DNA of 64,000 bases from an uncultured bacterium (GTDB taxonomy: Bacteria; Zixibacteria; MSB-5A5; CAIYYT01): assembly GCA_963726455.1 (NCBI GenBank), contig CAVSCK010000004.1, forward strand, positions 1,248,001-1,312,000, in the 5' to 3' direction. Shown piece after piece: positions 12,494 through 39,147 of the stretch (position 1 is the first letter of the stretch; each line of letters begins with the position of its first letter). Below the pieces are notes generated by a model, which was given only the letters and a program-made list of their open reading frames with translations, ran no database searches and was not told the DNA's origin. The position numbers and the translations under genes are program-made.

Positions 12494-13054
12494 CTAGGGC
12501 AGCTTGGATTTCACGGAAAGTGTAGCGACAACGGTTTTAGTGGTCTTGTCTTCGATTGTCACGAGCCACGTAGGTTCGGAATACTTCACGTCAAAGCTGT
12601 AGCGGTGTTTCGCCTTTACGGTAAGAGGCATCCGAAATGGTTCAGTTACGAAATCCCTTATTCCCTTCGGTCGCAGAAAACTTCCGGCACACCTCACTGT
12701 CAGTTCGTGAGGCCCGGGTGACAACATGACTCTCCGAAGTTGGTAAGACTCCGCGAATTCCGCACCTGCTTTGTCATAGCCCCAGCCAGTACTTGGATTA
12801 CCCGGCCGTTCGGCCTGGCTGTAGTCGTCCTTCACGCCATGAAGGATCATCGAGACAGACAACGTGTCAATCTTCACTGCGTAAACAAGCATGGTGCTGT
12901 CTGACGAAGTGCGCCCCTTTTGGGTACACAATTGGAATTCGGCAACGGAATCCTTGGGCATTTGTTTCCCGTCAAACGTTTTGGCTGTGCCTCCGCAAAT
13001 GCCGTATCCGTTCACAACGAGACTGATCGTAATTAACGCGAGAATCGTCCTCAT
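12494..13054 (-). CDS. Secreted hypothetical protein, tandem paralog 3
   Basis: Start MRTILAL with GAAAGGA SD; DGKQMPKDSVAEF ... AKHRYSF ... WLVTIEDKTTK. Confidence 0.7.
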   Translation of the reverse strand: MRTILALITISLVVNGYGICGGTAKTFDGKQMPKDSVAEFQLCTQKGRTSSDSTMLVYAVKIDTLSVSMILHGVKDDYSQAERPGNPSTGWGYDKAGAEFAESYQLRRVMLSPGPHELTVRCAGSFLRPKGIRDFVTEPFRMPLTVKAKHRYSFDVKYSEPTWLVTIEDKTTKTVVATLSVKSKLP

Positions 13055-13269
13055 AATGTGTCCTTTCCCGCAGGCGATATGGGGCCTGTTTACGTTCGGC
13101 GCAGTGACTCGCAAAACGCCCTCAAATGATTTCGGATAGAGTGAATTAAGAGCGCGACCCTGGGGCGAACAAGAAAAATCTTTTGCACTTACGTGGAGTG
13201 TAGACAAGGGCTAACTCGTCCCAAGGCAGGATCATGGAGTTTTCCGAAGCCCTCCATTGCCGATTCCCG

Positions 13270-13842
13270 TCACTCTACGATTGGTGACGTGCCCGCTACC
13301 CGTACCTTCGTGCCTCGATCTTCAATCCACACATCCCAATTGTTGCGAACGATCTTACCTCCGAGTCGATAGCGATGCCCGGCAACACAGTCAAACGCCA
13401 GAGGAATCGGCGATGAATACACAATCCGCCGTATAGACTTTTCGCTTCTCCGGCCGGTGCACTTGATCACGATAATATGGCGGCCTTGCGCCAGATAGAC
13501 TTTGCCGACTTTCTCCGCCAAGTCAAAGTCAACCAGGGCCGAGTCCAGTTGTTCGAGGGGGTTTGAAGCTGGAGCCACAGAGTCGGCCCCTTGATTCTTC
13601 CTTTGACCTCCGGAATGAAGTTGGGAAGTGGTGATCGTGTCAATTTGGCTGGCGTATACAAACAGGATCGTATCCAAAAAGCGATTGCCGACCTTTTGGA
13701 AGATGTCCAGTTCCGCCACCGAGTTCTTTGGCATCTTGCGTCCGTCGACTAGCTTAACATCACCGGCAGATACATGGGCTATCGCAGTTAGTAGACATGT
13801 GAACAAAAAAGCTGAGACAATCCTCATAGTGTGCTTCCTCAT
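13270..13842 (-). CDS. Secreted hypothetical protein, tandem paralog 2
   Basis: Signal peptide; DGRKMPKNSVAEL ... AGHRYRL ... WDVWIEDRGTK. Confidence 0.7.
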   Translation of the reverse strand: MRKHTMRIVSAFLFTCLLTAIAHVSAGDVKLVDGRKMPKNSVAELDIFQKVGNRFLDTILFVYASQIDTITTSQLHSGGQRKNQGADSVAPASNPLEQLDSALVDFDLAEKVGKVYLAQGRHIIVIKCTGRRSEKSIRRIVYSSPIPLAFDCVAGHRYRLGGKIVRNNWDVWIEDRGTKVRVAGTSPIVE

Positions 13843-14393
13843 TGCAAAACCTGTGCCGTTGTCGCAACGGTATCCTTAGTATCTTTATCCTCAATCCAGA
13901 CGTTCCACTTATCGACGACGATCGCCGCTCTCAGCCAGTAGCGGTGACCCGCCAGGCATTTCAGCGATAAAGGGATACGAGATGAAATTAAGCATGCGAG
14001 TCGACCTCTACCCTCAATCATACCATAGCAATTTGCTTTCACAATGTGCTTCCCAGGAGCTAGGTAGATTTTACCCGCGATGCCGATCCAATCACAATAC
14101 GCGCCTTCCGAAACTTGCACTTCCAGAAACACCGGGATATCGGAGAGAGTATCAACTTTTACCGGTTGGCGTTCGCTTCCATGAAACAGTTGGGGAGACG
14201 AAACACCATCCACCTCTGCTACCAGCACATCCCATGTGCTGTCCTGAGCCTGCCCTCCTTTGCCGGAAAGGTCGAATTCCGCAGTCAGTTCCTTCGACAT
14301 CTTCCTCCCGTCCAGAGTCCTGACTCTGCCCGTCGGCGCGCAGCCCAGAGCCAGCAACATCGATAGCATGATCGTCACGGCGCACGATTTCAT
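13839..14393 (-). CDS. Putative lipoprotein, tandem paralog 1
   Basis: MKSCAV...LALGC lipobox; DGRKMSKELTAEF ... AGHRYWL ... WNVWIEDKDTK. Confidence 0.7.
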   Translation of the reverse strand: MKSCAVTIMLSMLLALGCAPTGRVRTLDGRKMSKELTAEFDLSGKGGQAQDSTWDVLVAEVDGVSSPQLFHGSERQPVKVDTLSDIPVFLEVQVSEGAYCDWIGIAGKIYLAPGKHIVKANCYGMIEGRGRLACLISSRIPLSLKCLAGHRYWLRAAIVVDKWNVWIEDKDTKDTVATTAQVLQ

Positions 14394-14699
14394 CGAGGTA
14401 CTTTTCCTACTCCAGTATCTGGTAGCTGCTATGGTACACTGACGGATTACGGATGACAAACTCTTTTCTTTACTTTTTTGCCCGGAGGGAATCTTTTGCG
14501 CACTGCATAGTCCCGCATCAGCTTGAGGCAAAGAGTCCGAAATTTTCTAATGTAGCTTTCTGGGCGGTCAAATATAGGGCGTGGAGCATCAAGAATGAAC
14601 GAAAAGGCAGAAAATTCACATTTTGACCTCTACGCGCCGAAATTCTCTTGCCATTAGATATGGTTTCCGACATTATTAGACATATTAAGAGGTACTAAG

Positions 14700-16148: not shown

Positions 16149-16514
16149 GGGGGTGATTTGGTTTCGACGGGGTTACCGAGGATTGACTTGCGCGCCGAGT
16201 TTGCGCCAGACTCGTTAAACGGGTGCAAAACAATTAGCTGGCAACTATGCCATTGCTGCCTAACTAGCAAAAACTAGTTAAGCCGTCGGGCGCGAGGCCC
16301 GCCATCAGGCGTCGCGTTTCCGGCGTCGACAAATGATGGATAGCTTCAACGTTTGGCTTGGCGATGAAGAAGCGAAACTACAAGCGAAGCTGGTCTAACG
16401 CCAGCCTTAGTCTTTCGGCGGTGCGTTAGACGAGAAATAAATGAAAGAACACGCGCGTAGACGGTTAGTTGTCGGTTTCTTCGGACGGGGGTTCGATTCC
16501 CCCCACCTCCACCA
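16149..16514 (+). ncRNA. ssrA: tmRNA
   Basis: 5' GGGGGTGATTTGGTTTCGAC; 3' GGGGGTTCGATTCCCCCCACCTCCACCA; G3-U wobble in the acceptor stem; pk1; tag frame ending GNYAIAA*. Confidence 0.97.
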
Positions 16515-16583
16515 TTTTCAAGTGTCAAGGACGAGGCGGTTCTGATATTCGTTCCTGTAACCTGAGAAAAGGACTCAGCTAGG

Positions 16584-17351
16584 ATGCAGATCAAAGCGAA
16601 CTGTGATATCTACTACGATGACATCGTACGTGTGCTTTCTGGGCCCCTAGAAGGGCGAGTAGGAGTTGTGGATGACGAAGAATCGGGGAACGCCATTGTG
16701 CACTTTGGGGGATACTTTCTTACTCCGCAATATTACTTGATCGATCCGGATAACCTGAAACACTGCAGCGTCGATGATTATCTCAAACGGGAAGCGGAGA
16801 TCGTTACAGCACTTTTCACAAATCATGATCGTTCTTGGAAACATCGGTATGAGCTTCTTGCTGAACTCGAATTGATCAGAGGGGAGCTTGCCGCGGGCCT
16901 CAATCCAACTGACATGTGGTTTGACAAGAAGACGAGACGCAAGATCACAAAGGTATTCCTTGCGCACTCTGCAAATGACAAGCCCATCGCCAGGGCAATT
17001 CGTCTTGACCTCTTGAATAGAGGTTTCGATGTGTGGATAGACGAACAGGAAATCTTCGCCGGTGAGTCAATACCAGTCAAGATATCGAGAGCGATTGCAG
17101 AGTCGCACTTCATGGTTGTTCTTCTGTCTGGCGCTTCTGTTGCGTCAAAGTGGGTGGAAAAAGAATGGGCAACGAAGATTATCCAGGAAATTCCAGCGGG
17201 CAGAGTTTCCATTATTCCTGCCCTTTTGGAGCCCTGCGCCATACCAGCCGTATTGAGAGACAAGAGGTATGCGGACTTCACGGAGAGCTACGGGGACGGC
17301 CTAAGAGAGTTGGTCAAGGGGCTAGCCAGACCGAGGGCAACAAAGAGGTGA
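16584..17351 (+). CDS. KOW-like + TIR domain protein
   Basis: N-terminal IVRVLSGPLEGRVGVV (KOW-like); TIR motifs KVFLAHS.NDK, DVWIDE.EI..GE, SKWVEKEW, IIPALLE, YADF. Confidence 0.85.
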   Translation: MQIKANCDIYYDDIVRVLSGPLEGRVGVVDDEESGNAIVHFGGYFLTPQYYLIDPDNLKHCSVDDYLKREAEIVTALFTNHDRSWKHRYELLAELELIRGELAAGLNPTDMWFDKKTRRKITKVFLAHSANDKPIARAIRLDLLNRGFDVWIDEQEIFAGESIPVKISRAIAESHFMVVLLSGASVASKWVEKEWATKIIQEIPAGRVSIIPALLEPCAIPAVLRDKRYADFTESYGDGLRELVKGLARPRATKR

Positions 17352-17476
17352 AGGAGTGGTCATAATCATGAGGAGTCCTTGCTTCTGCTGATGGAGCTAC
17401 TTTCTGGAGTGTCAAGACCGAGGCGGTTCTGGCCTGCGCGATTGCGAGAAATTCGCTCCGTGAAGCGTTTGGCCAT

Positions 17477-18442
17477 ATGTTGAAAAGCGAAAATCGGTGG
17501 AGAGCCGTCCCGAGCGATAGTGGAACCATCTTTGAGCTTTTGAATAGGCAACTCATCGCGTTTTCGGAAGAGCATGAGGATGGCTTGCCCGAAATAGGCA
17601 CTGGGAAGAACGTCTTTGTAGGTAGCGACTACAGCGGCGAGCATCAGGAGGCCGACTACGAAGTGTATGCAATCCTAGTGGCACCCCTCGACAGTTGTAT
17701 GGAATGGGAATCGCGGCGAAGCGAAGTCAGAGAGAAATATCTTTCTGACGGTCGTAGAATGTCCTTCAAGGCCCTTCGCGATAAGAGGTGCCTCTCGGCC
17801 CTTCCGGAGTTCCTGGAAGCTGCTGATCATATTCCAGGACTCTGCGTGGCCTTTGCGGTACACAAGTCCGTGGGTTCACTTTTCGACAATCTAATATCAC
17901 CGAGATCTGAAGATCCCCTATTTCTGCCGTACCTGGGCTGGCCAAAGCATGTGCTCGAAAAGGCCGGTCGCCTCGCGCACTTCACGGGCTTTTTGCTGGG
18001 CGGGCTCTGCTCGTCAGGCCAGAACCTGCTTTGGATTACGGACGAAGATGCCGTGGCAGCTAACGTGGAACGCCTGAAGCAGTTCACCGATCTTTGTGGA
18101 TGGATCACAAGCCGCTATTTGAGTTTCGACATGGGACACATTAGGATCGGCACAACGGCTTCCGACAACGGCAGCAGATCTGTCGAGGATCTTGTTTCAG
18201 TTGCAGATATCGTTGCGGGAGCCATTTCTGAACAGCTCACCGCCCGGCGACGTTACGACTTCATCGACCCGACTAAAGTGTTCTGGCTCGCGAATCCAGA
18301 ATTCTCACATAAGACCAAGGACATAACATGGTGGTTTGCGTCTGTTCGTCAGCCGCTGAAGCGTCTTGTCTTCGTGATCGATGGAGAGGACAATTCCGTC
18401 AAAACCAAGGTGAGTTTCTTCCACTTCCACGATAGGTCGTAA
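17477..18442 (+). CDS. Hypothetical protein, possibly DUF3800 / RNase H-like fold
   Basis: VFVGSDYSG, WITDED and EDLVSVADIVAG give an acidic motif spacing resembling DUF3800; not confirmed. Confidence 0.5.
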   Translation: MLKSENRWRAVPSDSGTIFELLNRQLIAFSEEHEDGLPEIGTGKNVFVGSDYSGEHQEADYEVYAILVAPLDSCMEWESRRSEVREKYLSDGRRMSFKALRDKRCLSALPEFLEAADHIPGLCVAFAVHKSVGSLFDNLISPRSEDPLFLPYLGWPKHVLEKAGRLAHFTGFLLGGLCSSGQNLLWITDEDAVAANVERLKQFTDLCGWITSRYLSFDMGHIRIGTTASDNGSRSVEDLVSVADIVAGAISEQLTARRRYDFIDPTKVFWLANPEFSHKTKDITWWFASVRQPLKRLVFVIDGEDNSVKTKVSFFHFHDRS

Positions 18443-18559
18443 CGCATCATGGGTGGTGGCCCTTCGTGAAAGCAACAGGTAGGAGCGTTCTAGCTTGCCC
18501 AGTCGGCGTCTGTCTCGTGGCCGGAGATAAATGAACAGGTGAAGCGAAAGGAGCGGAGC

Positions 18560-19270
18560 ATGTTTAAATCCTTGAAACGGGCTTTTGCCCTAACAGATGG
18601 GTTAGAGGAACTGAAGAGGTTCAGTCCGATAACGTTTTTCGTAGAGAGAGTCTTCTTCTGCTTTCAGTACCTGTCGCCTGCGAATCTGCTATTCGGAACC
18701 CGCACGAGAGCCCACGAGATGGGCAAAGACGAAGAGAAATTCAGAGAAGTAACGGTAAAGAGGGGCCGCAAAATCGACGGCTACGTTCTGTGTTGGTTCG
18801 TTGTGTTGCTCCTCTGTGCTGTTGCCGCGGCGGACTCCCGAGAACCATTCAAGGCATTGATCATATTCCTGCCCGTACTCAGGATCTTCGACATTATGCA
18901 AGTTGCGATTAATATGGTAGTATTCGATCACTTGCGGACTACGCGAAAGCATTCCGTTTCTAGCGTTACCAGAACCCTTGTTATGGGGCTTTGGAACTTC
19001 GTCGAAATGGTGATCGCGTTCGGTATCCTATACTCCGCCATTATGCCGCAGATCGAAAATGCCAAGACTTGGTTCGACCCCTACTACTTCAGTGTCATAA
19101 CTCAATTGACCATCGGCTATGGTGATCTCACGCCGATCGGAGTGGCTCGAATGGTGACTGCTGTCCAAGGCATAGTAGGTGTTGTGTATGTGGTCATGAT
19201 GTTGTCAAGGTTCGTCTCTCTCATGCCCCGTATCGGCTCAGTCCAGACTAGCGAGAATCGCAAGGCATAG
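18560..19270 (+). CDS. Potassium-channel pore (Ion_trans_2) membrane protein
   Basis: YFSVITQLTIGYGDLTP selectivity filter flanked by TM helices; AGGAG SD. Confidence 0.85.
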   Translation: MFKSLKRAFALTDGLEELKRFSPITFFVERVFFCFQYLSPANLLFGTRTRAHEMGKDEEKFREVTVKRGRKIDGYVLCWFVVLLLCAVAAADSREPFKALIIFLPVLRIFDIMQVAINMVVFDHLRTTRKHSVSSVTRTLVMGLWNFVEMVIAFGILYSAIMPQIENAKTWFDPYYFSVITQLTIGYGDLTPIGVARMVTAVQGIVGVVYVVMMLSRFVSLMPRIGSVQTSENRKA

Positions 19271-19365
19271 GCTTGCCGTCCATGGCGGACACAAACTTGG
19301 GTGTCTGCCATTAGGCGACAGGGACCTGTGCCGCCAGCGGAAATCGAATTCAAGCTTCGACCAAA

Positions 19366-19684
19366 CGCCGAGTTTGCGCCAGACTCGTTAAACGGGTGCA
19401 AAACAATTAGCTGGCAACTATGCCATTGCTGCCTAACTAGCAAAAACTAGTTAAGCCGTCGGGCGCGAGGCCCGCCATCAGGCGTCGCGTTTCCGGCGTC
19501 GACAAATGATGGATAGCTTCAACGTTTGGCTTGGCGATGAAGAAGCGAAACTACAAGCGAAGCTGGTCTGACGCCAGCCTTAGTCTTTCGGCGGTGCGTC
19601 AGACGAGAAATAAATGAAAGAACACGCGCGTAGACGGTCAGTTGCCGGTTTCTTCGGACGGGGGTTCGATTCCCCCCACCTCCA
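19366..19684 (+). pseudogene. tmRNA copy 2, 5'-truncated (319 bp, equivalent to 16193-16511)
   Basis: Hand alignment shows 4 substitutions versus ssrA; lacks the first 44 nt and the encoded CCA. Confidence 0.95.
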
Positions 19685-19744
19685 ATAATTAAAGTGTAAA
19701 CCCTCAGGAAATCCTGACGTACACAACTATCAGTTGGTACGAAT

Positions 19745-20251
19745 ATGGATTTTGTGTCTCATGCACTGTGGGGCGGCGTAGCCCTTGGCCGATCGAGAAA
19801 AAGAGATTTCCTGCTGGCCGCCAGCATCTCAATCATGCCCGACCTTCTTACCGAAGGGCTTTTCATGCTTCTTTACTTGCTGGGAATTGGCGGAATGCCG
19901 GGATGGCAAAACGGACACCCCAATATCACCGACTACCCTCTGTTTGCCCAGACCCTCTATAACATCACGCACAGTTCAATCGTCTTTGCGGCCGTATTCG
20001 GGTTGTTGTGGGTAGTGATTGGCAGGCCCATGTGGGTTATCACGACCTGGGGTTTGCATATTCTAATCGACATACCCACGCATTCGCTGGCTCTCTTCCC
20101 CACACCATTTCTCTGGCCAATTTCCAACCTGAAATTCGACGGGATTGGTTGGGATCAACCTGTAGTTTGGGTCGTTGACATCTCTCTGTTGATAACCAGC
20201 TACGCACTATGGCTATACCCCGGACTTCGTAGGAGGATACAAGGCGGATAG
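19745..20251 (+). CDS. Metal-dependent hydrolase (YdjM-like) membrane protein
   Basis: MDFVSHALWG, PD, THS, HILIDIPTH, FLWP. Confidence 0.75.
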   Translation: MDFVSHALWGGVALGRSRKRDFLLAASISIMPDLLTEGLFMLLYLLGIGGMPGWQNGHPNITDYPLFAQTLYNITHSSIVFAAVFGLLWVVIGRPMWVITTWGLHILIDIPTHSLALFPTPFLWPISNLKFDGIGWDQPVVWVVDISLLITSYALWLYPGLRRRIQGG

Positions 20252-20279
20252 TTCAGTGATCTCACCCGGCGGTCTCAGG

Positions 20280-20339
20280 GCGAAACTTGATTGCGATGCT
20301 AGTCTGACGCCAGCTTAGTCTTTCGGCGGTGCGTCAGAC
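20280..20339 (+). pseudogene. tmRNA remnant 3 (internal 3'-pseudoknot region)
   Basis: GTCTGACGCCAGC-TTAGTCTTTCGGCGGTGCGTCAGAC matches 19566-19604. Confidence 0.85.
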
Positions 20340-20489
20340 TTTGAGTCCACAACAACTATGTTGCCGGACTTTGCTCCGTTTTCCCATCCCTCTACAAAAT
20401 TCTCTACCAGAATCCGGGACAGCTTCGTAATTTCAGATACTGACTTTCAATAAGAAGCTCTTGACAATGACTGAGAAGAGGAGCATTCA

Positions 20490-21005
20490 ATGCAAAGAAG
20501 AGCGTGGCTAATACTAGCGTTTGTGGTAACATTCGGACTTGGTTACGCGGTCAGCCAGGGGGTATCTGCAACCTCGGACGACACGCAAAAGCTGAAACGA
20601 GTTACCGGAATCGGGGGCATCTTTTTCAAGTGTAAAGACCCGGGCAAAATCAGAGAATGGTACCATGCGCATCTCGGTCTCGAAACTGACAAATACGGGA
20701 CCAGCTTCGTGTGGTGGCAGGGCGCAGACTCAACCAAGAAAGGGTTTACTCAGTGGAGTCCGTTTAATGACTCGACGAAGTACTTCCTGCCGTCAACCAA
20801 GGAGTTCATGATTAACTATCGGGTTGCCAACTTGACCGCCCTGGCTGATCAACTCCGGAAAGAAGGAGTAACAATTCTCGATACGATCGAGTCATACGAT
20901 TACGGAAAATTCGTTCACATCATGGATATCGACGGCAACAAGATCGAGCTCTGGGAACCCAACGATGATGAATATAACAAATTCGAAGGTGGGCGCACTA
21001 AATGA
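20490..21005 (+). CDS. VOC/glyoxalase family protein with signal peptide
   Basis: KRVTGIGGIFFK, FMINYRV, YGKF, DGNKIELWEP. Confidence 0.88.
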   Translation: MQRRAWLILAFVVTFGLGYAVSQGVSATSDDTQKLKRVTGIGGIFFKCKDPGKIREWYHAHLGLETDKYGTSFVWWQGADSTKKGFTQWSPFNDSTKYFLPSTKEFMINYRVANLTALADQLRKEGVTILDTIESYDYGKFVHIMDIDGNKIELWEPNDDEYNKFEGGRTK

Positions 21006-21772
21006 CGGAAACAGGTGACATCCCTATTCTAGAGTTCGATCCGACTCCACGGGCCGTACTCGAGCCGTCGGCGGTCGTTCCTCGGGTCGATAACGCAGAG
21101 CATTGTGTCATCTGCTTCTTTGACGATATCGTCCGGCAGGTTGCCGCGGCCACCGGGGCGAAAATAGTGTTTGAAGATAAGGGCTGCTACGGGACAAACC
21201 AATATTACCAGTTTGAGCACAACGGACGTCCGGTCGTCTTTTTCCAGCCGTTCGTCGGCGCGCCGCTGGCGGCGGCCTTTATGGAGATCGCCATCGGACT
21301 CGGATGCCGAAAATTCGTCGTTTGCGGCGGCTCCGGCGTGCTCGATAGGGATATTTCGGTCGGCGGCTTTATCGTACCGGACTCGGCTATTCGCGATGAA
21401 GGAACTTCCTATCACTACGTCGCTCCAAGTCGAACGATAGAAGTGGGTCAGAGGGCGAAAGATGCGATCATCTCGACACTGGACAGTCATCACCAGTCAT
21501 ACCGGGTAGGCAGGATCTGGACGACCGATGGCTTGTTTCGAGAAACACCGGCAAGAGTCGCCCGGAGAAAGTCGGAAGGTTGTGTGGCGGTCGACATGGA
21601 AGCGGCAGCCCTTCTCGCAGTGGCCCAATTTCGCAATGTCGAATTGGGTTACTTGCTGTTTGGGGACGACGATGTTTCGGGCGATGAGTGGGTTCAGAGA
21701 AGCAGTCTATCGAAACTGCCCGTCAAGGAAAGAGTTTTCTGGCTAAGCGTGGAATCGTGCTTGAAGCTCTGA
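21002..21772 (+). CDS. Nucleoside phosphorylase family protein
   Basis: VGAPLAA, AIRDEGTSYHY, WTTDGLFRET, VDMEAAAL. Confidence 0.9.
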   Translation: MTETGDIPILEFDPTPRAVLEPSAVVPRVDNAEHCVICFFDDIVRQVAAATGAKIVFEDKGCYGTNQYYQFEHNGRPVVFFQPFVGAPLAAAFMEIAIGLGCRKFVVCGGSGVLDRDISVGGFIVPDSAIRDEGTSYHYVAPSRTIEVGQRAKDAIISTLDSHHQSYRVGRIWTTDGLFRETPARVARRKSEGCVAVDMEAAALLAVAQFRNVELGYLLFGDDDVSGDEWVQRSSLSKLPVKERVFWLSVESCLKL

Positions 21773-21832
21773 TTCACGTTCCGATATTATCTTAACGCGT
21801 TTTGACACTTCTGACTTGGTCACAACGCGAGT

Positions 21833-21861
21833 CGGGGGTTCGTCCTCCCACATCCACATTT
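21833..21861 (+). pseudogene. tmRNA remnant 4 (degenerate T-arm/acceptor 3' end)
   Basis: CGGGGGTTCG-TCCTCCCACATCCAC-ATTT versus ssrA CGGGGGTTCGATTCCCCCCACCTCCACCATTT. Confidence 0.6.
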
Positions 21862-22099
21862 GTAAGTCAATATAGTTAAATCAATTGCCAGGGCAGCGAG
21901 GGCACCGTCCTACCGTCCCCTGCTACGTCCGACCCTATATCATTCAATTGCACTGAATATCATGCGGCGAGAAGTGTCACGTCTTGGTTACAAGGAATCG
22001 TCGCCTAACTACTCCTTCTCAATCTATGTTTTGATTCACTGCGTATTGATACATTGTTACATCTGTGGCAATTGTGTTAACCAGTGGAACTGATCTGGA

Positions 22100-22300
22100 A
22101 TGAAAAAGAAATCGAAGACAGAAACCAGGGATCGGATGGTTCATATTCGGGTGAATGTGAATATACATCGCGAATTGAAACTCCTTGCCGTCAGGAATGA
22201 CACCTCGATCCAAAGAATCGTTGAGGAATTGATTAGGCACAAAGTAGAAGAGATGCAAGCTGCTCTCGAACGATCTGGTAAGACAAAGGGACGAGAATGA
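22100..22300 (+). CDS. Ribbon-helix-helix DNA-binding protein
   Basis: MVHIRVNVNIHRELKLLAVRNDTSIQRIVEELI fits the RHH pattern; ATGA overlap with the kinase. Confidence 0.7.
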   Translation: MKKKSKTETRDRMVHIRVNVNIHRELKLLAVRNDTSIQRIVEELIRHKVEEMQAALERSGKTKGRE

Positions 22301-24982
22301 TATTGTCCAAAGGTCAAAGACTCGGTCCTTATGAGATCGAAGCGCCTGTTGGATCCGGTGCGATGGGCGAGGTATACCGGGCTAAGGATATCCGTCTCGA
22401 CCGAGTCGTGGCCATAAAGGTCTTGCCAGCCGCTCTGGCGCTCGACCGGGAGCTTCGTGATCGTTTCGTTCGCGAGGCCAAATTGATTTCGAGTCTGAAC
22501 CATCCGAATATCTGTACTCTTTTTGATGTAGGTCATCAGGAAGGGATCGATTTCCTGGTACTGGAATATGTGGAAGGTGAAACGATAGCGGATCGTCTAT
22601 GTAGAGGAACGCCATCACTCAAGGAAGTAATCAACATTGGAATTCAAATCGCAGACGCTCTCGAATCAGCTCATCGGCGTGGCATAGTGCACCGGGATCT
22701 AAAACCAGGCAATATTATGCTGACAAAGACCGGGGTCAAGCTCGTCGACTTCGGTCTGGCAAGATTGGTGCGGGAAGATGAGACAACGCGAGAGAGTGAT
22801 GAAGCGACTCGAAAGAATCCGTTGACTGGCAAAGGGGCTATCCTTGGAACCATCCAGTATATGGCTCCCGAACAGCTTGAGAAGCCAAGAAGTCGATCAT
22901 CGGGCGGATATCTTTGCCTGCGGCGCAGTCTTATACGAAATGGTAACGGGCAAGCGGGCCTTTCAGGGCGCCAGTCAGGCAAATCTCATTGCGAGCATAC
23001 TGAAGGAAGAGCCGCGGCCGATGAACGAACTGACGCCCTTGGCTCCGCCGGCATTGGAACGTGTAGTCAGGCAGTGTTTGTCGAAGAATCCTGACGAACG
23101 ATGGCAGAGTGCCGGTGATCTCAAGTGCGAGCTCAAATGGATACTCGAGCAGACTGGGTCTTCCTCAGGGACGAACATCAATTCATCTCCAGTTCGCTCG
23201 CGATGGCGCATGATGTGGACTGGTGGCTTGACCTTGGCACTTATCGCCGCTCTATCCGTGGCAGGCGTACTCTATTTCGGCAAAGGGAGCAAGACACTTT
23301 CACTTTCGAAGCGTTTTGTTATACCCACAGAAGACTTGAAAGCCGGCTTCGCGATTGCCCCCGTGATCTCGCCGAGTGGACGGTTCATTGTCTATCTGGC
23401 TAACAATCATCTCTGGTTGCGAGACCTTACCAAACTTGATGCCGAAATAATCGCAGAAATGTCATCGACTACCTCTTTCGAAAGTGGGGTTGCCGAGGGC
23501 TTCTTCTGGTCCCCTGATTCGCGTGCCATCGCCTTCTGTCAGAATAAGCGGATGTGGAAATATGATATCGAAACCGGGTCGAAAATACCGCTTTGCGACG
23601 TTCCCGAAACAGGCGACATCATAGCGGGCGCCTGGAACAAGGCCGGAGACCTCATCATCGCAGTTTGGAGAGGGGGGTTGTATCGAGTTTCCGATCGCGG
23701 AGGAGCACCAAATTTACTCATGGCGATAGATAGTCTCAAGTATCATGACTTTCACTCTCCCACCTTTCTTCCCGACGGCCAGACACTAGTACTCTTCGTC
23801 CACGCCTACAACCCGGAAGATGACTGCATCGCCATCCTCAAGAAAGGCGCCACGGCGCTAACAAGGTTGATGCTCGTCCCACGGGCAGGAGGCGTGACTT
23901 ACTCGCCAACCGGTCATCTCCTGTACACCTTCGTGGACGTCAATCCTTCAATTTGGGCGGTGCCGTTCTCAGCCGAAAAGTTGGAATTGACGGGCAAACC
24001 GTTCCTGGCGGTTCAGGGCGGACAGTTTCCGTCGCTGTCGGAAGACGGGGCGATGATATATTCAGTAGGAATGATAGAGCAGGAACTCCAGATGACGCGA
24101 TTGTCGCTCGACGGATCGTCAGTCACGCCTATCGGAAAGCCGATAGCCGGCTGGGCGGCGCCGGTATTCACTCCCGACGGTGAACACATCACTTTTACGG
24201 CGACTGACGACACGAGACGAAATCTCTGGCAGTATGATGTGAGACGAGGAACACTGACGCGACTGACATCTGATTCATCGGTGGACGTTCTGGCAACGTG
24301 GGTTCCATCGCGAAAGGAGTATGCGTTCAACAGGATCTTGAGTGTAGGAAAGGGATTTGTCCTGATGCTCGACCCGACGACCGGTAGGGTTACCGATACG
24401 CTGGTGGAAGGACTGGACCTGGCACTGTCTCCGGATGGGCACAATATGACATATAATACCGACGTACGGGGTAGGATAACTATTTGGCGCCTGGACCTGA
24501 ATGACCCGGCACATCCGGAGATATTGTTAAACGCCGAACAGGGTGTGGGCTTGGGGGGTGGAGTCTCGCCGGTAGCCCCGAACGGACGTTGGTTCGCTTA
24601 TGCATCATCGGAATCGGGGATACGGCAGGTCTATGTGAAACGCTTCTTGGAGCCGAGTGAAGCGATACAGGTGTCAATAGATGGAGGGAATCTTCCGTTC
24701 TGGCATCCTTCGGGAAAGTTTCTGTTCTATGTAACAGATACGGCATTGATGCAAGTCGACATTGTTTGGGACGACACACCCAAGCTAAGCCAGCCGAAGA
24801 TGCTCGTGAATACGTCAGACCATCACCTCGTGCTTACTAACCACCAACATCGGGATAATGCAGCGATATCAATCAGCCCTGACGGATCCTACTTCATCGT
24901 TGGTCGGGCCGTTGGCGAAATCAGCGGCCAGAGATTGTTCTACGTTGATCATTGGCTTTCCGAGACTACCCCAGAGCGATGA
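22297..24982 (+). CDS. Ser/Thr protein kinase + TM + TolB/PD40 beta-propeller (frameshift near 22880)
   Basis: GSGAMGEVY, VAIK, HRDLKPGN, DFG, YMAPE, then ADIFACG in the next frame; WSPD/SPDG repeats. Confidence 0.9.
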
Positions 24983-25094
24983 ACTTGTCGGAAAATACGA
25001 GTCTTCTACGATCCAAGAGAAGATCCCACAGCAAGCTGTGGGCTGCCAAATTTCGCCGACCTCAAACAAGCTTCTTAGTTGAGCGTATCTGTGC

Positions 25095-25685
25095 ATGAAT
25101 AGTATGAATCCTAAAGTTGATGCATATTTGGGCCGAGCCAAGAAGTGGCAGAGAGAACTGATGAAGCTAAGAATGATCGTTCTTGGCTGTCAGCTAACCG
25201 AAGAATTAAAGTGGGGTGTTCCCTGTTACACGTTTCAGAACAGCAACATTGTTCTAATACATGTGTTCAAAGAATACTGCGCGCTCCTATTCTTCAAAGG
25301 CGCTTTGTTAAAGGACGCCAAAGGCATTCTAATCCAACAAACCCAAAATACGCAGGCGGCGCGTCAGACTCGCTTCACCAATGTTCGAGAAATTGCTGAC
25401 ATGGAACCCGTCCTGAAGGCCTACATCAATGAAGCCATTGAACTGGAAAAGGCCGGCTTGAAGGTGAAGCTTAAGAAGACTACCGATTTCGCAATTCCTG
25501 AAGAATTTCAAAATAGATTAGACGAAATCCCCGCCTTGAAAACTGCCTTTGCTGCGTTAACGCCTGGACGGCAAAGAGCATACCTTCTCTATTTTTCTGC
25601 ACCAAAGCAATCCAAAACCCGGGAATCAAGGATTGAAAAATGTGTAGAGCAGATTCTCGATGGCAAGGGATTGAATGATCAGTAA
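25095..25685 (+). CDS. YdeI/OmpD-associated (DUF1801) protein
   Basis: EELKWGVPCY, FKGALL, LTPGRQRAY, AKQSKTR-like motif; visibly AT-richer than its neighbours. Confidence 0.9.
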   Translation: MNSMNPKVDAYLGRAKKWQRELMKLRMIVLGCQLTEELKWGVPCYTFQNSNIVLIHVFKEYCALLFFKGALLKDAKGILIQQTQNTQAARQTRFTNVREIADMEPVLKAYINEAIELEKAGLKVKLKKTTDFAIPEEFQNRLDEIPALKTAFAALTPGRQRAYLLYFSAPKQSKTRESRIEKCVEQILDGKGLNDQ

Positions 25686-25913
25686 ATTCGACAAGAATGT
25701 GACCTGGCCAGAATCCCACAGCTAGCCGTTTGTTACCGGCTTTACACACAATCGATCGGACCATGTGTCCTCTTCTCCCGAGGCAGACCCGACAGCTTCA
25801 CCTCCCAATAGTCCTCCTCAGTGAAACTCCTTGACCTCTAAACTCGTAGTGATTTGAAGCACTGATTCACGGTTAACCATAGTAGGTTTCGCTATCTGAG
25901 AGGAGGTTCTTCA

Positions 25914-26591
25914 TTGACACACTACGATTCTTCTATTCATCAACGATGGATCACCGTCGGCATCGTCTGCGGATTCGCAACTATGATCGTTTATCCAGCG
26001 ATCATATTCATCGATCTGCCGACGCCGCTGGGAATCTTTCTGGCTGCCTCATTCGGGTTCTTGTTCGCTTTGGCGAGCATCGGTCTCAAGACGATACTTG
26101 AACTTGATCGACCGTCCGTGGGAGCCCAAATCGGCGCCCTTGCCAACATCATCGGCGGAGCTGTGGTAGCCGCTATGATGCTTATACAAGTGGCGGTCAA
26201 TTCACACATGCACACTCTGATGGATGCTACCGCAGCCGGTATCACCAAAGACACCTACCGCCAGGTCTGGTTGGCAATCGACAAAATTCAGCTCGCTCTC
26301 GATGTTACCTGGGATTACTTCGGTGGTATCGGCACGGTGCTGCTCGCCTTTGCCGCGGCGAGGCATCCCCGATTCGGTTGGTGGTTTGCCGCCCCGGGAA
26401 TTATCCTCGGAGTAGCGCTCCTCATCCTCAATTGTTGGACTTTCCCAACACCTCCGGCCGAGGGCGGACTCTTTGATCTCGGTCCGTTCGTTGCCCTGTG
26501 GTACCTGGTGATGATGATTCGATCGGTTTTGTCACTTAAATGGATCCGGTTGAGATTGCAGGAAATGGCGAGCGCTTCAGATTCGAAATAG
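25914..26591 (+). CDS. Membrane protein of unknown function (about 6 TM)
   Basis: AGGAGG SD with TTG start; hydrophobic helices; DLGP motif. Confidence 0.7.
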   Translation: MTHYDSSIHQRWITVGIVCGFATMIVYPAIIFIDLPTPLGIFLAASFGFLFALASIGLKTILELDRPSVGAQIGALANIIGGAVVAAMMLIQVAVNSHMHTLMDATAAGITKDTYRQVWLAIDKIQLALDVTWDYFGGIGTVLLAFAAARHPRFGWWFAAPGIILGVALLILNCWTFPTPPAEGGLFDLGPFVALWYLVMMIRSVLSLKWIRLRLQEMASASDSK

Positions 26592-26668
26592 CGTGTAAGT
26601 CAAGACGCCTTGGGCTGGACGGTGCCAGTGCACGGTAGTCATCATTATCTGCTCGTGCCCAAATCCCC

Positions 26669-26812
26669 GAAAGTGATCTAGTTTCAGCGAGGTCCCGGGG
26701 ATTGACTTGCGCGCCGAGTTTGCTCCGGTTGAGAGATAAATAAACCAGCGCGCGTTTGGACAGTCAATCGGCCGTTTCTTCTTACCGGCGTTCGATTCCC
26801 CCACTTCCACCA
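26669..26812 (+). ncRNA. tmRNA-derived copy 5: 5' and 3' ends joined, tag and pseudoknots deleted
   Basis: GAAAGTGATCTAGTTTC...GATTGACTTGCGCGCCGAGTTTGC joined to GAGATAAATAAA...AGTCAATC...GTTCGATTCCCCCACTTCCACCA. Confidence 0.75.
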
Positions 26813-26821
26813 TTAACAAAG

Positions 26822-26848
26822 AGGTCAAAACCGAGACGGTCTTGACCT
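26822..26848. repeat. REP-like hairpin (related copies at 16522-16546 and 17409-17435)
   Basis: AGGTCAAAACCG-AGA-CGGTCTTGACCT; consensus GTCAAGACCGAGGCGGTTCTG. Confidence 0.65.
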
Positions 26849-26890
26849 ATACGACGCTAATTTACTACCCAATCTTCGCACGCTATCCGC

Positions 26891-36059: not shown

Positions 36060-39000
36060 CTAACTGATTGGGTCAGCCACTGCGTTCTGAATCTCTGCTG
36101 TCATTTCCGGGGCAATGGACTTCGGAGCCAGCAATTTGTACATCACGGGCGTCACCAGCCGGGCAAGAAACGTCGAGCTGATAAGGCCACCAATAATGAC
36201 CAACGCCAGTGGCGCATACAAAGGTGCACCTTCGATAACCAACGGCAACAATCCGCCGATGGCAGTCAGGGTCGTCAATAGAATCGGCACAAAGCGGATT
36301 TCACCGGCTTTTTGGATGGCGTCGTCAATGCTCAATCCCTTCTGTCGAAGTTGGTTTGTGAAATCCACGAGCAGGATCGAGTTCTTGACCTCAATACCCA
36401 TCAGCGCAATGAATCCGATCATTGAGACAAATGAGAGAGTCTCCCCCGCCAGCAGCAATGCCACGATGCCGCCAATGATGCCCAGCGGTATCACCGAGGC
36501 GACAATAAGCGTCCCCCTGAACGTCTTGAATTCGAGAACCAGCACCACCAGCATTCCGAAAGCGGCGATGAGAATTGCAGTCCCGAATCCGCCGAAACTC
36601 TTCTGACGCGATTCAATTTCGCCCGACGGAATCAACTGGTACCCGGTCGGCATCGGCATGGTGCCCAAGGTCGCAAGAATTTGTTTGGTCAGTTTGTCGG
36701 TATTGTAGCCGGTTCTCACGTCGCTGCTCACCGTGACCGATCTTTTCAGCTTGTAGTGGTCGATTCGTATCGGCGAGGTCTGAAATTCTACCGCAGCCAC
36801 TTGCCGCAGCGGCACATAGCCACTCATCGACGATCCGACATACATCTTATCAAGTGCTTCGATGGTCGGGCGCTTGTCACGCGGCAGGCCCAGGACAATA
36901 TCGTAATCGTCGCCGTCGTTCTCCCGGTATTGCCCGACGGACAGACCAGCCACGCCCAGGCGAACCTGTCTTTGAATATCAATCAGCGGCAGCCCCAGCA
37001 GACCGGCTTTATCGCGATCGACGACGACTTTCAGATCAGTTCGGGGCGAGCGCATGGGATTGTTCACCGACATCGTTCCGTCAGTGGCCGCTATCACCTT
37101 TTCCACTCGTGCCGCGAGCGACTTCAGGGTATCGAGGTCATCGCCCGTGATCCGCAAAGCAATGGGCGCTTCGACAGCCATACCGTTGGCGAATTCCTTG
37201 ACTTCAATCTTGGCATCGGGATACGCGGAGAATATCCGGCGCAGACTGTCAAGATAGATCGGCGTCTTCTTGCCGTTATACTCATCCATCGTTACGAACA
37301 ACTCACCGGTATTGGCCTTTTCGCCAAGACTGACACGATTGTAATAAACCTGCGGGTTTGCCTTGCCGATGTTGGTGAATACTTCTCGGACACCCGGTTT
37401 GCCGATCAGTTGGCTCTCGGCAAAATGTGCCGCCTTGTCGACCTCTACGACGGAACTTCCCTCCGGCGCCTCAATCGTGACGACAAACTGCGGAATGCCG
37501 GCTTTCGGAAACAGACTGAATCCCACGACCGGAATCAATGACAAACTGGATACGAAGAGAACTGCTGCCGCAACTACTGTATATACCGGATGGCTGAGTG
37601 ACCAGTGCAGCAAACGGCGATATGAGCGCTCAAGTACCCAATTCAATCCTCGCAGAACTTTGTTCCCTTCCTTTGCCTCCCCCTTCTTCAAAAGGAAGCT
37701 GGCCAGGAATGGTACGATTGTAAGCGAGATGAGCAGCGAGGCGCCGATCGTGAAGAGTACCGATGCCGGAAGACTTCTGATGTAGTTGCCGGCGGCGCCC
37801 GGGAGCAGCAGTAGCGGGAAGAAAGCAAACAGCAATGTCGCCGTGCATCCTATGACGGCGACTCCAATCTGGCGGACTGCCAGTACGGCTGCCTCCCGGC
37901 GGCTATACCCCGAGCGGATGAATCGGGAGATGTTCTCCACGACGACGATTGAATCATCGACCAGCAATCCGAGTGCCACTACGAAACCAACGATGCTCAG
38001 TTGATTGAGACTGAATCCTGTCACGTACAGCAAGGTTGTGCCGATGGCGAATGACAGCGGAATCGAAATCATGACGATCAGTGAGGCCCGCGGTCCCAGC
38101 GGCAGGAGTGTGAACAGAGACCAGAAAGATGGCGATAAGGAAATCGACAAGCAGATGGTCCAGCCGGCGGGCAACGTTGCGAGACTGATCGAACCCCGGT
38201 TCGAGCGTCACTCCCGGCGGCAGACTCTTGGCAAAGTCATTCATTTCCGAGTAGACTTTGTCGCGCACCTCAAAAATGTTTCTTCCGCCTTGCAGGGTTG
38301 CGGTGACGTAGATGGCGCGACGACCGTTGTATCGGGCGGTGTAAGTCTCATCCTCGTGATTCCAGGAGACGTCAGCCACATCACGAACGCGTACGACCGC
38401 TCCGCCGGAAGTCCCGATTATCGTGGCGCCGATCTGGTCCAGCGACTCATACTTGCCGGTCATTTCCAGATTAAACCGCCGACGGCCTGATTCCACGGAG
38501 CCACCGGGAATGTTGGCGTTGTCGCTTTGTACGGCAGCAATTATTTGTCCGAGCGGAATATGCAACGCGGCAATGCGTTCGAGATCAAGCGAGATACGGA
38601 CCTCTGTCTCCGGGCAGGCGACCACTTTGGAATTCTTGATGCCGCTGATGGCATCGATGCGGTCTTTCAGATTCTTCCCCTGCTTCTGAAGTATCTTGTA
38701 GTCGACCGAGTCAGACACGAGTGCGGCCTGAATGATATTGACATTGGTCGTGCTGAACTTGATCACCTCCAGACTCTGAAGCTCAGCCGGAAGCGTACTG
38801 CGAATTTCGTTGATTTGCCGCAGAACCGCGTCATGCTTCTGCTCGGCGTCCGAATTGGCGGTGAATTCAATATTCACGATGGCCACCTGGTCGCCGGAGA
38901 CTGAGTTGATCTGCTCGATGTCCTCGAGTTCCTTGAGACTTTTTTCAATCGGATTGATCACCAATTGCTCAACGTCGTATGGATTTCCGCCGGGGAGCAC

Positions 39001-39147
39001 GGCGACGACAGCAAACGAGGGAATCGGAAATACCGGATCTTCAGATCGGGGAATATTGAGAAACGATGTCAACCCCAGCCCGATCATCATGATGAACACG
39101 ACAATCGTCAGTTGGTAATTCTTTACTGAGAATTCTGAGAGTTTCAT
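36060..39147 (-). CDS. RND efflux permease, AcrB family (frameshift near 38110)
   Basis: IPRSEDP N-terminus; GLLVDDSIVVVENI; KNSILLVD; RFVPILLT. Confidence 0.92.

Follow-up and report, generated by a model that had tools for sequence, protein, structure and literature searches.

In this work, we describe an array of tmRNA-gene pieces behind the intact tmRNA gene, ssrA, of an uncultured bacterium of the Zixibacteria (assembly GCA_963726455.1). The array was studied in a stretch of 64,000 nucleotides (contig CAVSCK010000004.1, positions 1,248,001 to 1,312,000; hereafter, the window), and the genome carrying it is designated G000. Arrays of a related kind are known from the genomic islands that are specific to ssrA (ssrA-GIs) of Dehalococcoides (McMurdie et al. 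2011, PMC3146451). In the portion of that report drawn on here, an intact ssrA is followed by same-strand direct repeats of its 3′ end that are separated by strain-specific cargo, and a conserved 15-bp motif stands just upstream of each repeat. For some of these islands, which have no integration module, a cis-mobilisable or a fixed state is discussed; the older islands lie further from ssrA. To the extent of that portion, the array in G000 is alike in having ssrA, same-strand repeats and cargo, the absence of an integration module being shared with some of the ssrA-GIs. The two differ in that a CcrB-like serine recombinase and a uniform repeat of 20 bp are described for Dehalococcoides, whereas the relatives of G000 have a tyrosine integrase and a repeat of 26 nt. 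Unlike the ssrA-GIs as described there, the array in G000 holds pieces of 319 nt and 60 nt and an internally deleted full copy, with no integration module at all.

According to the sections of the Islander paper used here (Hudson, Lau and Williams 2015, PMC4383910), an incoming island restores the gene that it splits, and the displaced fragment marks its far end. The tmRNA gene was the most enriched target, and among 3919 islands, there were 125 tandems of at least two and 4 of at least three (PMC4383910). As stated in those sections, arrays are counted only where each member has an integrase, so the array in G000 would be filtered out, and integrase-dependent island finders, for example Islander, would skip such an array. 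The displaced fragments are normally short 3′ ends, whereas G000 has long pieces. A work by Williams of 2003, 'Traffic at the tmRNA gene', is reportedly to be named alongside the same principle for arrays at tRNA and tmRNA genes.

In the part of a preprint on the tycheposons of Prochlorococcus considered here, newcomers at tRNA and tmRNA genes push older elements inward, and the islands are dotted with degraded remnants and with partial tRNA genes (bioRxiv 10.1101/2020.12.28.424599). The remnants described in that part include fragmented integrases, whereas none is detectable in the array in G000.

Integrons consist of the integrase IntI, an attI site and attC cassettes, and they form polarised series of small co-oriented gene units beside a fixed anchor. 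The array in G000 is integron-like in its polarised, co-oriented and unrelated units, its repeated sites and its fixed anchor. Unlike integrons, it has no IntI and no attC-like sites at the junctions, and what is repeated at its sites is a structural RNA gene, in pieces of unequal extent. Cis-mobilisable elements (CIMEs) are flanked by att sites and have no integrase or transfer functions; they stand in tandem with integrase-bearing elements or are deletion derivatives of them, and their attL and attR are functional. The array in G000 is CIME-like in structure only: its intervals are bounded by ssrA-derived pieces and contain no recombinase. Unlike CIMEs, it has one degenerate arm-bearing site left and no helper element. 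Both CIMEs and accretion at a single att site are cited in the portion of PMC3146451 drawn on here.

A ladder of five tmRNA-gene pieces

The intact gene (copy 1) is the single tmRNA gene found by ARAGORN, and it covers the full RF00023 model (gathering score, 47 bits). Positions along this gene (366 nt, ending in an encoded CCA) are given below as tm numbers, and the coordinates of the features are collected in Table 1. Behind it lie four derivatives, all on the same strand as ssrA. The first of them, copy 2, comprises tm 45-363 and yielded the second RF00023 match of the window search (19337-19681, 103.9 bits). By BLASTN of the tmRNA gene against the window, an internal third piece (tm 224-283, 85% identity) was also found, as well as a last copy composed of tm 5-59 (26673-26726, 84%) and, 4 nt further on, tm 284-366 (26731-26812, 75%); the last copy had correctly been described before as the joined ends of the gene. 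No further long copy was found by BLASTN in the whole genome, the sole other match being 21 nt within a tRNA-Leu gene.

The remaining piece, at 21833-21861, was missed by BLAST, as its length and state of decay put it beyond that search. Nevertheless, 21820-21856 was matched by nhmmer with a profile built from the arm and repeat of relatives (profile positions 73-111, E = 1.2e-5), and the local alignment of 21833-21861 to tm 338-369 has a score of 20, which was reached in 0 of 500 shuffles (maximum, 11). The piece aligns with a repeat of the congener G003 together with 12 nt of the upstream non-tmRNA flank of that repeat, and 21820-21861 as a whole matches the attR regions of G003, L026 and G002b. 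The scar thus consists of the inner 13 nt of the arm (21820-21832) and a repeat matching at 22 of 26 positions. Because of this arm remnant and repeat, at least this junction is, in its predicted structure, a classical attR of the ssrA island family of the relatives described below. This is the sole arm in the array, and it is truncated; neither the profile search nor inspection of the sequence found an arm before copy 2, the third piece or the last copy. The 3′ end of ssrA is included in copy 2, in the scar at 21833-21861 and in the tm 284-366 part of the last copy, whereas the third piece is internal only.

Identity to ssrA along the array is 98.7% for copy 2, 85% for the third piece, 85% (22/26) for the attR scar and 84%/75% for the two parts of the last copy, in agreement with the preliminary description, in which decay broadly rose with distance from ssrA. 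The same-strand ladder of five pieces reported there, with 4 differences in 319 nt between ssrA and copy 2, is confirmed by ARAGORN, RF00023, BLASTN, the profile and the shuffles.

Two further candidate sites were rejected. A possible extra junction at 20618-20637 (17 of 20 positions identical to the ssrA end and flank) lies inside the VOC ORF (open reading frame), with which a homologue in G011 aligns at residues 1-165. A T-arm-like stretch at 20364-20401, 24 nt behind the third piece, is not significant, with p values of 0.02-0.06 from shuffles and an equal score in 71 of the 822 segments of the window.

The ssrA-specific island family of relatives

Twenty-one genomes were compared, namely G000 and 20 others from its family. 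The 24-nt end of ssrA has at least two matches in 9 of them. In 6 of the 21 (G000, G003, G004, G014, G016 and G017), extra matches lie on the ssrA contig, on the strand of ssrA and 1-78 kb downstream. In G014, a 381-codon open frame (stop to stop) with a PF00589 tyrosine-integrase domain (100.9 bits) is located 1.9 kb from ssrA, and in G007, a tyrosine integrase 55% identical to that of G014 starts 177 nt behind ssrA.

The canonical repeat in the relatives is always tm 338-363 (26 nt), and directly 5′ of it stands a conserved arm of about 50 nt, in which the direct repeat GGTCACAAT occurs twice before CCACAACGCGAGT (the arm reads roughly GGTCACAATTTGGTCACAATG ... CCACAACGCGAGT). In G002b, G003, G004 and G014, the arm preceded the repeat at 8 of 8 sites examined, as it did at both of the sites on L026 and L027, which are metagenomic contigs. 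Arm and repeat sites are located at 10010-11290 of L001 (G003), about 7290-7380 of L006 (G004), 3746-3831 of L026 and 173-253 of L027, as well as in L009 (G014). Based on its position and conservation, we infer that this sequence is the putative attP arm of one island family. Weak matches of the arm profile elsewhere in the G000 genome were discarded, as these are the T arms of tRNA-Leu and tRNA-Thr genes.

Six islets of relatives, 1.1-4.9 kb in length, contain no integrase, nor did tblastn find integrase fragments in them. Their common part is a right end of 74-90 nt only, with 78-93% identity; the interiors are unrelated, and the left ends are not conserved. The end formed by arm and repeat is also alike between the genera g1 and g2, whose tmRNAs are about 76% identical. 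Some of these islets directly adjoin ssrA (G004, G003, L026 and L027). Their cargo is ordinary (MIP (aquaporin), glucose dehydrogenase and GH15 in G004; also DUF4153 and DUF7670) and oriented either way. The conservation of the arm between genera, while the islet cargo is unrelated, suggests that an ssrA-specific element family has recently been spreading in this bacterial family. The comparison brings out a putative ssrA-targeting element family with a tyrosine integrase and a conserved arm about 50 nt long.

Recombinases in the window and in the genome

The window was previously described as free of integrases, and indeed no match to PF00589 or PF00239, that is, to tyrosine or serine recombinases, was obtained in it. 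There was no DDE transposase among the 34 window ORFs scanned with Pfam (12.5-47.6 kb), a family-directed search not having been made. Integrase remnants at the junctions, named in the preliminary description as grounds for refuting it, were not found. No gap between ORFs exceeds about 240 nt, too little to accommodate a recombinase remnant, and tblastn of the G014 ssrA integrase against the window gave a best E-value of 1.2.

The genome encodes four tyrosine recombinases, of which three score as XerC/XerD-type and the fourth is a weak (98.5 bits), Xer-like protein near a tRNA-Thr island. There are also two large CcrB/XisF-like serine recombinases. None of these genes is near ssrA. On the integron-integrase model, the Xer-like recombinases scored 31.9-136 bits against a cut-off of 265. 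A trans-acting integrase, which it had been suggested to look for, was sought across the whole genome with no cognate found, the best match to the G014 integrase being 26% identical. Judging by these sequence searches, the array is without a cognate enzyme in cis or in trans.

It should be noted that a CcrB/XisF-like serine recombinase ORF of 581 aa (G000:C4:1052627-1054372) overlaps with its 3′ end a tRNA-Thr gene on the opposite strand (C4:1054245-1054319), and the weak Xer-like tyrosine recombinase is encoded 10 kb from it. Probably, the two genes belong to a separate island at tRNA-Thr. The overlap recalls dsiB of Dehalococcoides, which overlaps attL.

Long pieces without an arm

Copy 2 differs from ssrA by four transitions and has G249, C279, C318 and C324. 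The copy-1 states at all four positions are found in 7 of 7 other genus-level tmRNAs with which G000 was compared. The changes A249G and T279C affect pairing partners in the PK4 helix, and G249:C279, common to copy 2 and the third piece, occurs in 0 of these 7; it is, from the predicted pairing, a compensatory pair. Such a pair in two scars indicates that both descend from a once-functional allele; the 319-nt displaced copy, with this compensatory allele, offers a rare view of a tmRNA allele that functioned at an earlier time. The third piece, which corresponds exactly to the PK4 hairpin and contains none of the crossover region, is closer to copy 2 (88.5% identity) than to copy 1 (85.2%). In addition, G316 and G327 are carried by both copy 1 and copy 2, whereas G327 occurs in 0/7 and G316 in 1/7 (L027) of the other genus-level tmRNAs. 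Because both alleles share these two states, the donor of the present ssrA 3′ part was probably a close relative.

The flank behind copy 2 aligns, up to 19706, with the flank behind ssrA in G001, whereas the flank behind copy 1, after the CCA, resembles the element-side flank of G003. This suggests that copy 2 is the displaced resident end. The sequence upstream of copy 2 resembles neither tm 1-44 nor the promoter region of ssrA (p 0.4-0.66). The sequence GAATTCAAGCTT, in which EcoRI and HindIII sites adjoin, is found at 19346-19357, 8 nt before copy 2, and occurs once in the 3.64-Mb genome; with about 0.4 occurrences expected per genome, this is probably a coincidence.

The last copy retains both gene ends and the trailer hairpin described below, while tm 60-283 is gone. 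Its nearest sequence is the own ssrA of G000, and the alignment with ssrA extends 31 nt beyond the CCA. As read from the sequence, it has A at position 3, so that the G3:U pair is lost, and its T stem is broken. It was tried as a functional mini-tmRNA and rejected: there was no RF00023 match at E <= 1, and its fold z-score of -0.34 is no better than that of shuffles. By these features, the last copy is an old pseudogene. Neither extra copy has a complete tRNA-like domain, tm 1-44 being absent from copy 2 and the G3:U pair and T stem from the last copy.

Among 151 class genomes sampled, G000 is the only one with a partial second RF00023 match over the threshold. Two full-length matches were obtained in G002, G016, G245 and G246, three of these on separate contigs of draft assemblies. 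In G246:C6, from another family of the class, two full-length tmRNA matches of 151 and 152 bits are inverted and 17.5 kb apart (155-511, + strand; 18056-18413, - strand). An apparent tandem ssrA in G005:C151 (L007 3352-3470) was set aside as a likely assembly artefact, as the contig ends in an exact repeat, 119 nt long, of the beginning of its own ssrA.

The trailer hairpin

A short A/T-rich linker and then a hairpin of the form GTCAARACC-loop-GGTYTTGAC follow both ssrA and every canonical repeat. The consensus stem of this hairpin has 10 predicted pairs and tolerates G-U pairs, a sign that the hairpin is an RNA-level element in the ssrA transcript. Insertion at the 3′ end of ssrA would cut the gene from its own trailer, so it would be sensible for elements to bring a replacement. 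A 24-nt direct repeat with 92% identity (16521-16544 and the second hairpin, which has no tmRNA piece) brackets the TIR gene and probably marks one more junction; for this reason, four acquisitions are a minimum count. The hairpin is present at 3 of about 7 junction-like sites in the window and is the only one recurring there. Its 9-mer is not a genome-wide repeat: it occurs 15 times in the window, where about 8 occurrences are expected, and its density is 0.10-0.18 per kb on every contig.

Origin of the array

Taking these results together, we consider that the array is probably a scar field left by serial acquisitions at ssrA, the integrases of which were later deleted, rather than a new integron-like system. 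The integrases beside ssrA in G014 and G007, the arm before the repeats and the arm remnant at 21820-21832 argue for an ordinary integrase-dependent island family whose integrases have been lost. The integron-like mechanism operating without an integrase that had been put forward in the preliminary description is not supported. The polarised and chronological order of the array proposed there, with ssrA as the landing pad, is supported. However, this order is what the standard serial-integration model holds, as far as the cited portions of PMC3146451, PMC4383910 and bioRxiv 10.1101/2020.12.28.424599 describe it.

The following course of events is suggested. At least four times in succession, foreign DNA would have been acquired at the tmRNA gene. 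Each newcomer would have brought a replacement for the 3′ part of ssrA with its trailer hairpin, so that ssrA stayed functional, and would have shoved the older resident piece and its cargo downstream, which would leave the oldest scars furthest from ssrA. At least one event, that of the scar at 21820-21861, was an insertion by the ssrA-specific tyrosine-integrase island family that persists intact in the relatives, as the conserved arm indicates. The integrase genes and left ends would have been deleted later. Such deletions would be blocked by the essential ssrA, yet they could remove everything from behind ssrA to the right-end cargo; deletions starting behind ssrA and ending within an island would leave right-end cargo and a right-end scar, as here and in the relatives. 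The three long scars without an arm would be displaced resident copies of ssrA, originating either from Campbell-type integration of a circle with a long ssrA segment or from one-sided homologous replacement by DNA of a close relative. For copy 2, three routes fit the topology and may each apply: a single crossover with a tm 45-363 circle, the action of an integrase close to tm 45, or homologous replacement on one side, joined illegitimately at tm 45. With no cognate integrase in the genome, the array would now be immobile. The region would then show how an ssrA hotspot looks once its mobility genes are gone, with compact, co-oriented accessory and defence-like genes and tmRNA-gene fossils between them.

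Several points weigh against this history. The arm is found at one of the four scars only, so that the evidence for entry by an integrase is confined to one event. At 319 nt, the scar of copy 2 greatly exceeds the family's 26-nt repeat, no meaning is known for its 5′ boundary at tm 45, and since G000 is the only one of 151 genomes with such a partial copy, the ordinary model does not predict it. As no fragment of an integrase is left anywhere according to tblastn, the deletion is assumed rather than seen. All ten genes between the pieces have the orientation of ssrA, which decay alone does not explain, the islets of the relatives facing either way. Finally, the correctness of the assembly depends on the contig alone.

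Alternatively, the array might be an active cassette platform, in which integrase-less, cis-mobilisable cassettes with ssrA-derived bounds are captured, excised and reshuffled in trans by the integrase of a visiting island, in an integron-like or CIME/accretion-like manner. The integrase-less islets with a conserved arm and repeat end (78-93%) and unrelated cargo, present in several genomes and in some beside ssrA, speak for such a platform, and cis-mobilisation of islands of this kind is raised in the part of PMC3146451 cited above. However, detection by arm and repeat favours islets that keep both, and the left ends of the islets are not conserved. In G000, moreover, the single arm-bearing junction is truncated and degenerate (profile positions 73-111, repeat 22/26), the other junctions are non-canonical, tm 224-283 has no crossover region, and there is no cognate integrase in the genome, which makes an active platform improbable. 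It is scarcely credible that the pieces arose by misassembly or from collapsed strain variants, although the second ssrA copy in G005 is a likely artefact and two window genes are frameshifted: the pieces are inside a 1.9-Mb contig of a 5-contig genome, each is flanked by unique sequence on both sides, they differ from ssrA by substitutions, indels and extents, and one of them matches scars of independent genomes.

The long scars could also have been produced by homologous recombination independent of an integrase, for which long ssrA repeats would provide the homology. RecA would loop out a circle with one hybrid ssrA segment and cargo that, after transfer, re-enters any ssrA by a single crossover, or linear DNA would be taken up through homology at one end and an illegitimate joint at the other. 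This would explain long arm-less scars such as copy 2 (319 nt, 98.7%), and a complete upstream copy with a 5′-truncated downstream copy followed by the resident flank is the single-crossover topology expected for a tm 45-363 circle. G327 (0/7) and G316 (1/7) in both alleles point to a closely related donor, and ssrA is 97% conserved among congeners against about 75% for the neighbouring genes. Nevertheless, recombination tracts are not directly in evidence; that the four differences fall within 76 nt is a weak indication, with an estimated p of about 0.04 when site heterogeneity is ignored. An integrase crossover near tm 45 yields the same product, and the process is not recurrent in the group, as a long partial copy is found in 1 of 151 class genomes. 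We therefore regard this origin as unlikely. A more far-reaching version, in which the long arm-less pieces are working parts and the tmRNA gene serves as a universal homology pad for recombinase-free exchange of cargo (RecA loop-out, Campbell re-entry or homology-anchored uptake), has little chance of being correct, and homology-driven exchange via the conserved ssrA without an integrase is, in general, doubtful to improbable. Such exchange through the long pieces would, if real, give gene cassettes a new way to travel; the evidence favours ordinary decay.

Genes between the pieces and extent of the variable zone

Ten genes are located between the pieces, all on the + strand in the same direction as ssrA. 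Gene families were assigned with Pfam, and membrane segments were predicted by a hydropathy scan. Most gene labels of the preliminary description were retained, namely TIR, channel, VOC, phosphorylase, kinase and YdeI (by Pfam) and the membrane protein (by its five segments). The label 'DUF3800-like' for the 321-aa protein had no Pfam support at E <= 1, the supposed hydrolase matches merely YdjM, at E = 0.059, and the ribbon-helix-helix protein remains a possible one (E = 0.0014). It had also been noted that the intervals hold unrelated co-oriented accessory genes. This was borne out: apart from ssrA and its copies, the DNA of the array (16.5-27 kb) had no match in three congeners.

Of 285 class genomes, 4 encode the 321-aa protein, one of them being G000. 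For the VOC protein, a full-length homologue adjoins a homologue of the PNP gene in G011. The closest homologues of the PNP gene (58-67% identity) are scattered across other families of the class, while two congeners have a match, at 35-38% identity. The PNP homologues elsewhere are not beside ssrA pieces, since 0 of 9 loci have an arm-profile match within 1.5 kb. In the kinase gene, Pkinase positions 1-171 are in the ORF 22297-23094 and positions 166-253 in the ORF 22844-24982 (Pfam). The frameshift lies near 22870-22880, where the tblastn alignment of a paralogue switches frame, just past the APE motif and with no long homopolymer. The gene is probably a true pseudogene within the array.

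Table 1. Features of the tmRNA-gene array, with positions in the window.
Feature	Position	Strand	Evidence
Intact tmRNA gene ssrA (copy 1), CCA encoded	16149-16514	+	ARAGORN; RF00023 195.6 bits
Trailer hairpin behind ssrA (GTCAAGGAC..GGTTCTGAT)	16519-16547, hairpin at 16524	+	Aligned with the modules that follow ssrA ends and repeats in relatives
TIR-domain protein, 255 aa, defence-like	16584-17351	+	Pfam TIR_2 4.6e-26; PADLOC TIR models
Second trailer hairpin, without tmRNA piece	17406-17435, hairpin at 17411	+	Repeat, alignments
321-aa protein, family not assigned	17477-18442	+	No Pfam, NCBIfam or PADLOC match
Ion-channel protein, 243 aa	18539-19270	+	Pfam Ion_trans_2 8.4e-15; four hydrophobic segments
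5′-truncated ssrA copy (copy 2), tm 45-363	19366-19684	+	BLASTN 315/319; RF00023 103.9 bits
Decayed resident-type 3′ flank, CCA not encoded	19685-19727	+	Alignments with G001 flank
168-aa membrane protein, weakly YdjM-like	19745-20251	+	Pfam YdjM E = 0.059; three hydrophobic segments
Internal ssrA piece (third piece), tm 224-283, exactly the PK4 hairpin	20280-20339	+	BLASTN 85%
VOC/glyoxalase-family protein, 171 aa	20490-21005	+	Pfam Glyoxalase 1.6e-5
PNP_UDP_1 nucleoside phosphorylase/nucleosidase-like protein, 256 aa	21002-21772	+	Pfam 1.9e-29
Island right-arm remnant (..GGTCACAACGCGAGT), then degenerate tm 338-363 repeat	21820-21861	+	nhmmer profile, alignments, shuffles
Possible ribbon-helix-helix protein, 66 aa	22100-22300	+	Pfam Antitox_RHH E = 0.0014, below family cut-off
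Ser/Thr kinase bearing PD40 beta-propeller repeats, in two ORFs owing to a frameshift	22297-24982	+	Pfam, tblastn
DUF1801 + OmdA (YdeI-like) protein	25095-25685	+	Pfam 3.5e-20, 4.3e-20
225-aa multi-pass membrane protein, no family match	25914-26591	+	Five hydrophobic 19-mers; Pfam none
Decayed ssrA copy with internal deletion (last copy), tm 1/5-59 joined to tm 284-366, CCA kept	26669-26812	+	BLASTN 84%, 75%
Trailer hairpin behind the decayed copy (GGTCAAAACC..GGTCTTGACC)	26822-26846, hairpin at 26824	+	Alignments

It is only near 44.7 kb that synteny with G003 is restored, so that the zone of variation behind ssrA spans about 28 kb, with the tmRNA scars in its first 10.3 kb. The rest encodes a DUF6588 protein, TetR regulators, another kinase, GNAT/MarR, an S41 peptidase, a dehydrogenase and an RND efflux operon, and no mobility genes were found there by the Pfam scan of the ORFs. 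In metagenomes, there were 0 contigs with the exact 35-nt pattern specific to the ssrA allele of G000. A 40-nt genus-level ssrA pattern was found in four metagenome contigs, all of them other species-level variants, and none of the array genes is in these four.

The efflux operon, with HlyD, OEP and TetR, contains the second frameshifted gene of the window, that for an AcrB-type RND transporter (36060-39147, - strand). It is split into the ORF 36060-38174, with ACR_tran positions 356-1020, and the ORF 37954-39147, with ACR_tran positions 2-346.

On the other side of ssrA, three tandem paralogues of 237, 190 and 230 aa with a mutual identity of 28-35% are encoded upstream at 12494-14531 (- strand), where G003 has a single copy. 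In G001, merely 24 bp separate a conserved 600-aa gene from the upstream region of ssrA. These differences indicate that the upstream side of ssrA is also variable within the genus.

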